From a phage, in the NCBI GenBank assembly GCA_011839185.1, contig GCA_011839185.1_3918.1: a stretch of DNA of 64,000 nucleotides, one strand, 5' to 3'. The position numbers and the translations under genes were made by a program. Below the pieces are notes generated by a model. That model was not told where the DNA came from and ran no database searches. It worked only from the letters and a program-made list of their open reading frames with translations. Position 1 is the first letter of the stretch. Every line of letters starts with the position of its first letter. Positions 45,187 through 46,740 of the stretch are shown piece after piece.

Positions 45187-46740
45187 TCTATAAAGAATCC
45201 TTTCCCTTTCCTTTCCAGAATCTACCCCACTGATTCGATAGAGTCTATCTCATACCTTAAAAAGCAATAACTCTATAGTCTATTCTATAGCCCCTTATCA
45301 AATCAACTTAAATAAAAGCCAATAACCCCAGAAAGGGGATGGCCCATTTAAACGCTCTATAAAGCTCTATAACAGCCTTATCAACCTAACTTAAGGGATT
45401 GCATTAACCCACTCTAAAAAGCCCTTTATAAAGCTTCCTATAGCCTTAAAAGAATCTTATAAGGTGTAAGCTTTATCATCTCGTTAGTTTCTTGTGAATA
45501 TCTAAAAAGGGCTTGTTAGTGTCTTAAAAGTATGTTATAGGGGCTTAAAAGTAGCTTAAAAGCTATGTGAAAGAGGCTATAAAGTTACGTAAATGCTAGC
45601 CCCCTTAACATTTTCTTAACAATTTCTTAACAAACCCTACATAGTTATGCTTGTTAGAGACTTGTTAGCCCCTTGTTAAATCTCTGTTAAAACCACGTAA
45701 AAGGCTTGTAAGAACCTTTGGCATAGCCTTAAAAGCTCCTGTAAAGCCCTATAAAGAGCTATCCATACAGTTGAGGGGTAAATACTAGGAAGAGGCTTAA
45801 AAGAGCTTACAAGGAGCTATAGAGAGCTTTTAAGAGGCATGTTTAAGGAATCACTAAGAAAGGAAAGGGAACGATAAGGAAGAGATAGTGACCATGTTAA
45901 TAGCTTGTTAAAAAGATTAAACACTTGTTAGAAACTTGTTAATTATCTTAACAAAATAACCCTTTAAAATTAACTTGTTAGCTCTTGTTAGTCATCTGTT
46001 AAGATTCTGTAAAGCCTATTCAGCACTTGTTAGAAAACTGTTACAGTCTTGTTAGTTCTGTTAAGAATCTGTTAAGACCTTTGAAGAGTTGTTAAGAAGA
46101 TGTAAGGACTGTTAAGAGATTGTTAAGGATATTTTAAAATTTTGCAAAGTACTTGTAAGGGAGTTGTTAAGGGCTACCAAGCAGATATACATCTTCTACA
46201 GATATTTTTCAGTTCCTTCAAAGACCCTAAAAAATGACTTGATAGTCCTATTTTATAAAAATTTTAAAATTCTGAATAATTACCTATACAGTCTTTTAAA
46301 AATACAGGTAGAAACAGGCTTATAAGATACCTTGTTAGTACCGTGTTAGACCTTGTGAGATAAGGTCTGTAAAGATATTACTGTTAAGTTTGTTAAAACA
46401 GTCTATATAGAGGCTTAGTATTTCCTAGTGAACATCTATAGAGAGTCACATAGCTGACATAGAGATTAAGAGGTGTATAGGAGCTTCTAAGAAGGTGTAG
46501 AGAGATGGTTAAGGTGATTGTATAGGTTGTTAAGAAGGCTTGTTAGAGGGCTTGTTAGAAGGGTTATACAGAGGGGCTATTAAGACCACTAGATAGTTAC
46601 TAAGATACTATATAGTACTATATAACTATATAGAGAGTAAGATTAAGAAGGTTGTTAAGAAGGGTAGATATTTTATTCACATATGATGGTGACCCAGAGG
46701 TTGGGACAACCGATAAATTTTATAAAAATTAAAAAGCCCC
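45187..46740. repeat. ORF-free iteron field: dozens of CTTGTTAG / CTGTTAAG / TTGTTAAG repeats, many at 10-12 bp phasing
   Basis: e.g. 45979-46135 aacttgttagctcttgttagtcatctgttaagattctg...gactgttaagagattgttaagg; also CTATAAAG/CTTAAAAG boxes at 45190-45600; no ORF of 60 aa or more in the track. Confidence 0.7.

Follow-up and report, generated by a model that had tools for sequence, protein, structure and literature searches.

The stretch of phage DNA analysed here (64,000 nucleotides, below called the window) contains at 45187-46740 a field that very probably represents the end region of a linear genome of the Felix O1-like type in concatemer-junction or collapsed form, in which boundary motifs and phased boxes would serve packaging and end processing. 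It is best read as a packaging or end-processing landmark rather than as a replication origin. The order that fits best is right-subterminal non-coding DNA (45187-45598), a single direct terminal repeat (DTR) of ~580 bp (45599-46178) and left-subterminal non-coding DNA (46179-46740). Among the functions that an earlier, sequence-only reading had proposed for the field, that of a packaging landmark gains support, since the field holds the sequence that forms the DTR, and hence the physical ends, in close relatives.

The phage is a virulent member of Felixounavirus, the Felix O1-like myophages, with 90-93% nucleotide identity to Felixounavirus genomes, and the field corresponds to positions 12299-13962 of Felix O1. 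A DTR of 608 bp was demonstrated in UAB_Phi87 by Bal31 digestion and run-off sequencing (PMC4837284), and PhageTerm gave one of 581 bp in Pr103Blw (PMC8303462). TerL of the Felix O1 type forms a DTR group of its own, and the Felix O1 group is without a known small terminase (Bardina et al., PMC4837284). The field is homologous to the DTRs of UAB_Phi87, UAB_69 and Pr103Blw, with 84-93% identity and the same flanking genes. On the window, the edges of these Felixounavirus repeats fall at 45597/45599 and 46178/46180; a single copy is present there, in the junction form.

The deposited records of relatives define the ends closely. ZX4221 and SeKF_63 carry exact repeats of 591 bp and 613 bp, respectively, at both record ends, each mapping to window 45599-46178. 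The annotated DTR of UAB_69 (618 bp), an annotation made by similarity to UAB_Phi87, maps to 45597-46180; it was used for the mapping in place of the UAB_Phi87 record (JN225449.1, 87,603 bp), which is not opened at the physical ends. The start of the vB_EcoM_D4 record and the end of that of NBEco004 both equal window base 45599. The ends of these relatives are thus fixed and non-permuted: all four of the unannotated cases share the homologue of 45599, ZX4221 and SeKF_63 also end at that of 46178, and the UAB_69 annotation lies within 2 nt. The same boundary nucleotides recur in records from different countries and submitters, and by these records the homologous sequence stands at both virion ends. 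The published termini differ by 2 nt according to method (45597/46180 vs. 45599/46178), so that the exact cut positions relative to the motif described below are uncertain. A headful pac site was rejected, the relatives having fixed ends with an exact repeat of ~0.6 kb. Three other sets of record ends were discarded as termini. Those of ULIM8 are an assembly artefact, overlapping over ~123 bp (window 41754-41877) that lie in a dispersed intergenic repeat; those of KMM2, which overlap by 64 bp, are likewise an artefact; and LMP34 is a partial genome.

Table 1. Features of the field and its borders, in window coordinates.
Feature	Position	Strand	Remarks
Two hairpin and T-run elements, GGGGCTaaatAGCCCC and AAGCTCCTtctcatAGGGGCTTTTTT	45129..45185	+	End of the + strand early gene block; seen by direct reading of the sequence
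Right-subterminal unique non-coding segment	45187..45598	+	In the virion would adjoin the right-hand terminal repeat copy, on its inner side
Direct terminal repeat (DTR) homologue, 580 bp	45599..46178	+	Single copy here, as in a concatemer junction or collapsed assembly
Left DTR boundary, candidate terminase recognition/cut site	45599..45634	+	GCCCCCTTAACA, then three reverse boxes
Four forward boxes: CTTGTTAG, CTTGTTAG, CTTGTTAA, CTGTTAA	45650..45692	+	Exact 11-bp spacing
Middle of the DTR	45705..45890	+	CTNNNNAG boxes phased at 10-11 bp, then a purine-rich stretch
Right half of the DTR	45895..46178	+	15 TGTTAR boxes in forward orientation, spaced mostly by 10-11 or 20-22 bp
Box-poor AT-rich spacer, 26% GC	46179..46330	+	AAGCAGATATACA ... 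CTATTTTATAAAAATTTTAAAAT; directly inside the left DTR copy
Left-subterminal unique non-coding segment	46331..46660	+	8 further forward TGTTAR boxes, e.g. GGCTTGTTAGAGGGCTTGTTAGAAGGG
Intrinsic terminator ending the - strand gene block	46732..46757	-	Terminator scan: 10-pair stem, then a T-run

The sequence-only reading was right that 45187-46740 contains no open reading frame (ORF) of 60 codons or more and that it lies between convergent gene blocks, the + strand block ending at 45120 and the - strand block starting at 46766. The sole ORF of at least 40 amino acids (46164-46325, 53 amino acids, TTG start) was rejected as a gene for lack of conservation in relatives, and the longest ORF of the homologous stretch shifts in position and strand from genome to genome. 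The transcription units converge at the field because each of the terminal gene blocks is read outward, in the direction of its genome end, as the gene map of ZX4221 shows; each virion end has ~1.0-1.2 kb free of genes. The two hairpin elements after the + strand block are absent from the output of the automated terminator scan, and the Mijalis record has an annotated terminator at the homologous place, directly after the last + strand gene. On the other side, the KhF2 record has an annotated Rho-independent terminator at the place homologous to 46732..46757. A structured non-coding RNA gene was also considered and rejected: an Rfam search of 44800-47000 gave no match better than E = 0.29, terminators stand on both sides, and a promoter scan of the field found 7 sites against 6.6 expected, hence no excess. 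The eight flanking proteins fall only into PHROG families of unknown function, with no Pfam family above the cut-off, and no initiator-like or ParA/ParB-like gene is found among the flanking genes. The terminase genes lie outside the window, which shows only replication, nucleotide-metabolism and rII genes.

The box content of the field was compared with 1000 dinucleotide-preserving shuffles of 45187-46740, none of which reached any observed value. Forward TGTTAR occurs 28 times (shuffle mean 1.9, maximum 8), CTTGTTAG 11 times (mean 0.05), CTWWAAAG 12 times (mean 0.9) and the general box frame CTNNNNAG 58 times (mean 10.9, maximum 22). Neighbouring boxes are 10-12 bp apart in 21 pairs (mean 0.2, maximum 4), and the autocorrelation of box positions peaks at lags of 10-11, 21-22, 31-32 and 42-43. 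Both the excess of motifs and their helical phasing, as claimed from the letters alone, thus stand. The field has 11 forward copies of CTTGTTAG, compared with none forward and two reverse in the other 62 kb, and TGTTAR is strand-biased (28 forward vs. 4 reverse). Periodicity was assessed by a parameter-free dinucleotide measure in place of wedge-model curvature; in 300-bp windows, the maxima of the entire 64 kb for the ~10.5-11 bp periodicity of AA, AAA, AG and CT all fall in the field.

The zonation had also been described correctly: a zone of CTWWAAAG-type boxes comes first, followed by TGTTAR zones, with ACTATATAG near 46600. In the right-subterminal segment (412 bp), boxes of the forms CTATAAAG, CTTAAAAG and CTAAAAAG make up a CTWWAAAG array with A-tracts phased at ~10.9 bp. 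The segment holds 9 CTWWAAAG and 14 CTNNNNAG boxes; CTATAAAG/CTTAAAAG dominate here, 9 of the 13 CTWWAAAG boxes counted in 45121-46765 lying in it, and the AA/AAA periodicity of the window is maximal at 45301-45801. TGTTAR boxes dominate 45650-46175 and 46331-46660. At the left boundary the reverse boxes, CTTAACA at 45605, 45616 and 45627, are 11 bp apart, and ~20 bp separates them from the four facing forward boxes, whose TGTTAR cores begin at 45652, 45663, 45674 and 45685; in relatives, indels of 11 or 22 bp at this place correspond to whole boxes. The boxes in the middle of the DTR are, in order, CTTGTAAG, CTTAAAAG, CTGTAAAG, CTATAAAG, CTTAAAAG, CTTACAAG, CTATAGAG and CTTTTAAG. The right half, where the 10.5-bp periodicity of AG and CT reaches its maximum in the window, is closed by the right boundary, TGTTAAGGGCTACC. 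The AT-rich spacer has no TGTTAR box; its conservation is 0.92 (50-bp bins), and the stretches GCAGATATACA and CTATTTTATAAAA are invariant. The left-subterminal segment also carries CTATAKAG and ACTATATAG boxes, the copies of the latter lying at 46603-46634, and its indels among relatives measure 10-12 bp.

The 64 kb contain only two copies of the motif GCCC(N0-2)TTAACA, one at each DTR boundary and inverted relative to one another. In the complete genome of ZX4221 the motif is found at 1, 587, 88668 and 89254, and at one other site; 14 of the 15 forward copies of CTTGTTAG in that genome, and its 13 densest TGTTAR windows, are at the genome ends. Among 9 genomes from 3 genera the left boundary stretch varies little or not at all, and both boundaries are near-invariant in Felixounavirus, Suspvirus and Mooglevirus, the right one with a single change in KMM2. 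In the Erwinia Kolesnikvirus vEam_S_24 the terminal repeat is 442 bp long (442-444 bp, 99.3%) and its layout matches, with reverse boxes at the left boundary, 11 copies of TGTTAAGA and a homologous right boundary; the subterminal box differs, being CTTCTAAG. BLAST aligns the Erwinia Kolesnikvirus phages only with the 45895..46178 part of the DTR, and the flanks no longer align. The TGTTAAGA array is nevertheless kept in the Erwinia phages despite divergence of the remaining sequence.

Across genera the non-coding DNA of the field is 75-81% identical, compared with ~52% amino acid identity for the adjacent 197-residue protein, and its conservation is at least that of the neighbouring coding DNA and far above that of the neighbouring protein. 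The non-coding stretch remains 1.67-1.79 kb long among relatives, and the number of boxes is maintained at 55-65 per genome, although only 32-42 of the 58 boxes of the field occur at the same place in other genera; four genera retain the orientation bias and the zonation. Boxes are scarcely better conserved than spacers in other genera (0.78 vs. 0.73, a marginal difference, since 93 of 1553 circular shifts were as high), indicating that selection on individual boxes is weak or diffuse. Indels among relatives come in units of 10-12 and 21-27 bp. Replication slippage by itself can produce indels of unit length.

The mechanism we propose is that terminase recognises the inverted GCCC(N0-2)TTAACA elements while packaging head-to-tail concatemers, and would cut or nick at both edges of the one repeat present. 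Following the Watson/T7 model, strand-displacement synthesis would then duplicate the repeat, leaving a copy at both ends of each packaged genome. The dozens of boxes spaced one turn apart would offer repeated contacts on one face of the helix, and together with the phased A-tracts may form a bent or wrapped nucleoprotein platform. It is plausible that the array binds or titrates a DNA-binding protein; the likeliest binder would be an oligomeric recognition protein, with a small-terminase-like factor of this phage group as candidate. Such a platform would mark the junction and, because the boxes are oriented 28 forward vs. 4 reverse, would fix the polarity of packaging. A more specific proposal, put forward tentatively, is that the TGTTAAGA-type boxes are the docking array of an end-recognition protein common to the Ounavirinae, the "missing" small terminase, which would wrap or polymerise over ~300 bp and touch the DNA once per helical turn; boxes of the second class would be lineage-specific partner sites. 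There are 19 forward TGTTAAGA-type boxes in the repeat and 8 more directly inside the left end, with reverse copies at the left boundary, as a result of which both virion ends show the same box orientation; the second class is CTWWAAAG here and CTTCTAAG in the Erwinia phages. If this proposal is true, the size and regularity of the array would be unusual for a terminase-recognition platform, and it would offer a direct means of finding the protein.

A replication origin had been suggested on the basis of the phased boxes. At an origin of the iteron type these would bind an initiator, the AT-rich stretch 46179-46330 would unwind and the terminal repeat would merely overlap; T7 has secondary origins near its left end. 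The phased boxes do adjoin the stretch of 26% GC, and the cumulative GC skew turns at the field. The turn, however, coincides with the change in gene orientation, and cumulative skew at its maximum points to a terminus, not to an origin. A search for Chi, the IHF consensus and DnaA boxes gave only one weak DnaA-like site, at 46673, the flanks contain no initiator family (none of the eight proteins encoded there has a known function), and a more conventional origin candidate is the divergent gap, rich in promoters, that separates the DNA polymerase gene from the primase/helicase genes at 9.3-9.5 kb. With the arrays sitting exactly on the physical ends, an origin is improbable. The partition function suggested at the same time has fared worse. 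An array of many phased short sites could in principle be a centromere-like site, or a decoy titrating a host DNA-binding protein, but a parS-type site was rejected, the phage being a virulent myophage (Felixounavirus) whose flanks lack any gene of parA/parB type; the region has neither an IHF consensus match nor a Chi site, and the DTR explains a position exactly at the genome ends. Both variants are very remote.

The terminal position itself leaves room for explanations of another kind. The end arrays might bind a protein of phage or host, or act through intrinsic curvature, to protect the ends or assist ejection rather than to direct terminase, a reading we consider unlikely but more credible than an origin. 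Its variants, a shield against RecBCD, an anchor in portal or tail for the last-packaged or first-ejected end, and a sacrificial non-coding buffer, are to be rated no higher. The boxes met first on going inward from either terminus are oriented alike (CTTAACA on the left side, on the right the complement of TGTTAAG), there is ~1.0-1.2 kb without a gene at each virion end, the window has no Chi site, and the authors of the PhageMaP study suggest that the Felixounavirus Bas63 is without a RecBCD inhibitor, as a possible explanation of recombination yields. A passive buffer, though, would not need boundary motifs and boxes conserved across four genera. End protection is compatible with the terminal and packaging reading, and could be an additional truth. 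Alternatively the boxes may be a functionless satellite, slippage-prone repeats that drifted and expanded in terminal non-coding DNA where only the two cut sites matter. Whole-unit indels of ~11 or 22 bp are what slippage would give, individual boxes turn over (32-42 of 58 positions kept in other genera), and boxes differ weakly from spacers in conservation. On the other hand, four genera retain the number, orientation bias and zonation of the boxes, and TGTTAAGA is still present in Erwinia phages with flanks that can no longer be aligned. The field also equals or exceeds neighbouring coding DNA in conservation, surpasses the neighbouring protein by far, and keeps a stable length of 1.67-1.79 kb. 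A satellite therefore has little probability, and packaging and end processing at the genome termini is the reading retained.

The DTR itself was already known; the box arrays seem to be undescribed. Those parts of the papers and records on UAB_Phi87, UAB_69 and Pr103Blw that were available give the length and position of the DTR and describe no phased arrays, inverted boundary motif or subfamily-wide conservation. A literature search found no published description of the box arrays. Direct repeats are listed in the Felix O1 genome paper, but this region is not among them; the Danish coliphage paper leaves its own repeat_region features without explanation, and for the present intergenic stretch the PhageMaP study of Bas63 contains no data. 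Felix O1-like phages are widely used in Salmonella typing, diagnostics and biocontrol, and Bas63 serves as a model. Most deposited genomes of the group are opened at arbitrary points, and the group lacks a defined small terminase and packaging signal. A pair of inverted GCCC(N0-2)TTAACA motifs ~0.6 kb apart provides a sequence rule for ordering and annotating them, genome engineers are given 1.5 kb to leave undisturbed, and the phased TGTTAAGA boxes could serve as DNA probes for isolating the end-recognising protein. More generally, what looks in a phage assembly like an "iteron field between convergent genes" can turn out to be a terminal repeat in collapsed form instead of an origin.

The junction of T7 and T3 resembles the field in having a short exact terminal repeat in non-coding DNA full of strand-biased, regularly spaced boxes of 7-8 bp. 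Dunn and Studier reportedly named the CCTAAAG arrays within and beside that repeat SRL and SRR in 1983. In the T7 sequence as read here, the first 480 bp, terminal repeat (160 bp) and flank together, contain 11 CCTAAAG boxes; those in the flank are spaced at 13 bp, and CCTAAAG resembles CTTAAAAG or CTATAAAG of the field. The window contains an array of this type (58 boxes, 21 spacings of 10-12 bp, TGTTAR 28:4), but the likeness is solely one of type: the sequences are not homologous, and the phages belong to different families, T7 being a podovirus and the present phage a myovirus. The field is also ~4 times longer with its 58 boxes, is spaced at 10-11 bp (a helical turn) rather than 13 bp, and has two box classes in separate zones; the T7 stretch holds promoters and an origin, whereas the field shows no promoter excess.

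Terminase recognition sites built of phased repeats are familiar from cosB of lambda (the R sites), pacL and pacR of SPP1 and the hexamers of P1 pac, where binding of a small-terminase oligomer determines the polarity of packaging. What the field would have in common with them is the principle of multiple short sites phased with the helix, on DNA bent beside a cut site, binding in the present case being presumed. Lambda, SPP1 and P1 have cohesive or headful (permuted) ends and 3-7 sites, in contrast to exact terminal repeats and dozens of sites in the field type. Short inverted boundary sequences are reported by Lobocka et al. (2012) to bracket the long terminal repeats of SPO1/Twort-like myophages. 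The field is like them in having a short inverted motif at both edges of the terminal repeat; it differs in sequence and phage group, and theirs are gene-carrying repeats of several kb.

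The field of short repeated boxes at 45187-46740 is 90–93% identical to the corresponding region of Felixounavirus genomes, and its counterpart in Felix O1 lies at 12299-13962. Members of this genus are virulent, Felix O1-like myophages that infect Salmonella and E. coli. The gene content outside the field is consistent with this identification and includes DNA polymerase, primase/helicase, nrd genes, rIIA/rIIB, a run of small early genes and 26 tRNA genes. To the left of the field the last + strand gene stops at 45120, and to its right the − strand genes begin at 46766. As the sequence-only reading had claimed, 45187-46740 contains no ORF of 60 codons or more; the longest encodes 53 aa (TTG start, 46164-46325). 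It is not conserved: the longest ORF of the homologous stretch shifts in position and strand between relatives.

The phased repeats described in that reading, which named a shuffled control as the check, exceed chance by a wide margin. In 1000 dinucleotide-preserving shuffles of the region, none reached the observed value for any of five box features: forward TGTTAR (28 copies; shuffle mean 1.9), CTTGTTAG (11; 0.05), CTWWAAAG (12; 0.9), the general CTNNNNAG frame (58; 10.9), and adjacent boxes spaced at 10–12 bp (21; 0.2). The autocorrelation of box positions has maxima at lags of 10–11, 21–22, 31–32 and 42–43, and the window-wide maxima of 10.5–11 bp periodicity in AA, AAA, AG and CT fall in the region. 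The other 62 kb contain no forward and two reverse copies of CTTGTTAG. The proposed zonation was also borne out, with CTATAAAG/CTTAAAAG boxes first, then TGTTAAG-type boxes, and ACTATATAG copies near 46600.

Judged from the sequences of its relatives, the field is the genome ends of a Felix O1-like phage. Several of the 255 matching records start or stop inside the region, each with two matches to it. Both ends of the ZX4221 record bear the same exact 591-bp repeat, which maps to 45599-46178; an exact 613-bp repeat in SeKF_63 has the same boundaries, and the annotated 618-bp direct terminal repeat (DTR) of UAB_69 maps to 45597-46180. The base common to the start of the vB_EcoM_D4 record and the end of the NBEco004 record is the repeat boundary at 45599, and direct terminal repeats were reported by the authors of vB_EcoM_D4 using PhageTerm. 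Bardina et al. (PMC4837284) digested virion DNA of the Felix O1-like phage UAB_Phi87 with Bal31 and used run-off sequencing to show a 608-bp terminal repeat; for Pr103Blw, the reported repeat is 581 bp long (PMC8303462). Since the repeats at the ends of these records map into the field, the window shows the junction form, in which right-subterminal DNA, one repeat copy and left-subterminal DNA follow in that order. The "convergent transcription units" of the sequence-only reading are the two terminal gene blocks, each transcribed outward to the genome ends, as both are in the virion-ordered map of ZX4221. One of the 255 records that match this enterobacterial Felixounavirus region bears a Staphylococcus phage label, probably through mislabelling or contamination.

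Features of the junction and of the neighbouring early region, in window coordinates
Feature	Position	Description
Terminators		at both outer limits of the field
Right-subterminal DNA	45187-45598	
Repeat, single copy	45599-46178	580 bp
Left DTR boundary	45599-45634	GCCCCCTTAACA, then three reverse boxes at 11-bp spacing (45605, 45616 and 45627)
Forward boxes after the reverse boxes	45652-45685	four, 11-bp spacing
Middle of repeat		CTNNNNAG boxes phased at 10-11 bp; purine-rich stretch
Right half of repeat		15 forward TGTTAR boxes; terminates in TGTTAAGGGCTACC
Left-subterminal DNA	46179-46740	
Stretch directly past repeat		152 bp, box-free, 26% GC, highly conserved
Boxes beyond the box-free stretch		8 further forward boxes
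Intergenic cassettes (examples)	40173-40281, 41254-41341, 43319-43408	

The motif GCCC(N0-2)TTAACA has exactly two occurrences over the two strands of the 64 kb, in inverted orientation, once at each DTR boundary. In the complete ZX4221 genome it is found at positions 1, 587, 88668 and 89254, and at one further site. The arrays are likewise restricted to the ends of this 89-kb genome: 14 of its 15 forward CTTGTTAG copies and all of its 13 densest TGTTAR windows lie in the terminal regions.

The whole field can be aligned among nine genomes of three genera with 75–93% identity, and few stretches are as well conserved as the two DTR boundaries, of which one is invariant and the other nearly so. 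Identity of the adjacent 197-aa protein is down to about 52% in Suspvirus and Mooglevirus phages, and parts of the flanking coding DNA are wholly unalignable. Each genome retains 55–65 CTNNNNAG and 19–28 TGTTAR boxes. If the boxes were functionless products of slippage, one would expect the turnover that is seen: only 32–42 of the 58 keep their exact position in other genera, and indels, apart from those of 1–4 bp, cluster at 10–12 and 21–27 bp, the length of one or two boxes. Conservation is only marginally higher in boxes than in spacers (0.78 vs 0.73). However, slippage without function does not fit the conservation of the arrays across four genera. Alignment with Erwinia Kolesnikvirus phages is limited to the right end of the repeat. 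A 442-bp terminal repeat in the vEam_S_24 record follows the same plan, with reverse TTAACA boxes at the left boundary, 11 copies of TGTTAAGA, and a homologous right boundary followed by GTAGATATACA; the subterminal box of this phage, CTTCTAAG, differs. The two copies in this record (PP079187.1; 442–444 bp, at both ends) are 99.3% identical, which suggests that they differ through sequencing or assembly, or that the two ends are truly heterogeneous.

Of the functions suggested from the sequence, a packaging landmark is supported by the mapping of the terminal repeat in relatives, but a replication origin and a partition site do not hold. Against an origin, no initiator gene was found in the flanks, there is a single, weak DnaA-like box, the turn in GC skew tracks gene orientation, and the polymerase-primase gap at 9.3–9.5 kb is a more conventional candidate. 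Against partition, or an array acting as a decoy, par genes are absent from the flanks, the phage is virulent, and the field has no IHF or Chi matches. A role in end protection or ejection could coexist with the putative terminase role, with which it is compatible; Bas63, a Felixounavirus, may lack a RecBCD inhibitor, as suggested by the PhageMaP authors.

The closest known element is the Felixounavirus DTR, of which relatives already provide determined and annotated examples. The literature open to search yielded no account of the phased arrays, of the inverted motif at the boundaries or of their subfamily-wide conservation. Among known systems, the T7 terminal repeat and its arrays of CCTAAAG are nearest in kind; in the T7 sequence, read directly, the repeat spans 160 bp, the first 480 bp hold 11 boxes, and the flank spacing is 13 bp. 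Here the field is longer, the phasing equals one helical turn, and the boxes form two classes, each in its own zone. The field may also resemble cosB, the boundary repeats found in Twort-like phages, and the pac sites of SPP1 and P1. Terminase may cut or nick a concatemer at the inverted elements that bound the single repeat copy, and the repeat would then be duplicated through strand-displacement synthesis, as proposed for T7. Boxes spaced at one helical turn, together with phased A-tracts, could give an oligomeric recognition protein a bent or wrapped platform to bind, and packaging polarity could be set by the strong bias in box orientation. A small terminase is the obvious candidate for binding the boxes, as none is known for this phage group (Bardina et al., PMC4837284).

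The divergent intergenic gaps at 9355-9540 and 54235-54390 share a near-identical twin -35 promoter module (TTGACAatgtacTTGACAaggtgt at ~9.37 kb and TTGACAaagtacTTGACAaggtgt at ~54.24 kb). The leader after each carries CTTAAAAG, CTTATAAG or CTCTAAAAAG boxes of the subterminal type, so these boxes may also regulate both transcription units. The 26 tRNA genes lie downstream of the 54.2-kb promoter region (56424-62203, + strand); fewer, 22, were reported for Felix O1. Between 39300 and 44900, dispersed intergenic cassettes of ~60–120 bp precede nearly every small early gene, each combining a promoter-like part with an adjacent hairpin of the form GGGGCTTAAAAGttg...AAGCCCC. These cassettes correspond to the 57-bp and 39-bp direct repeats of the Felix O1 genome paper, and the assemblies of the relatives ULIM8 and LMP34 break within them. 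The 64-kb window contains no GATC at all, where trinucleotide frequencies predict ~224 copies, and it also lacks 19 palindromic hexamers with 8–21 expected copies each, including AGATCT, TGATCA, ATGCAT, GGATCC, CTGCAG and GAGCTC. CTAG, CCGG and GGCC are also depleted; together this is an extreme avoidance of restriction sites and Dam sites.
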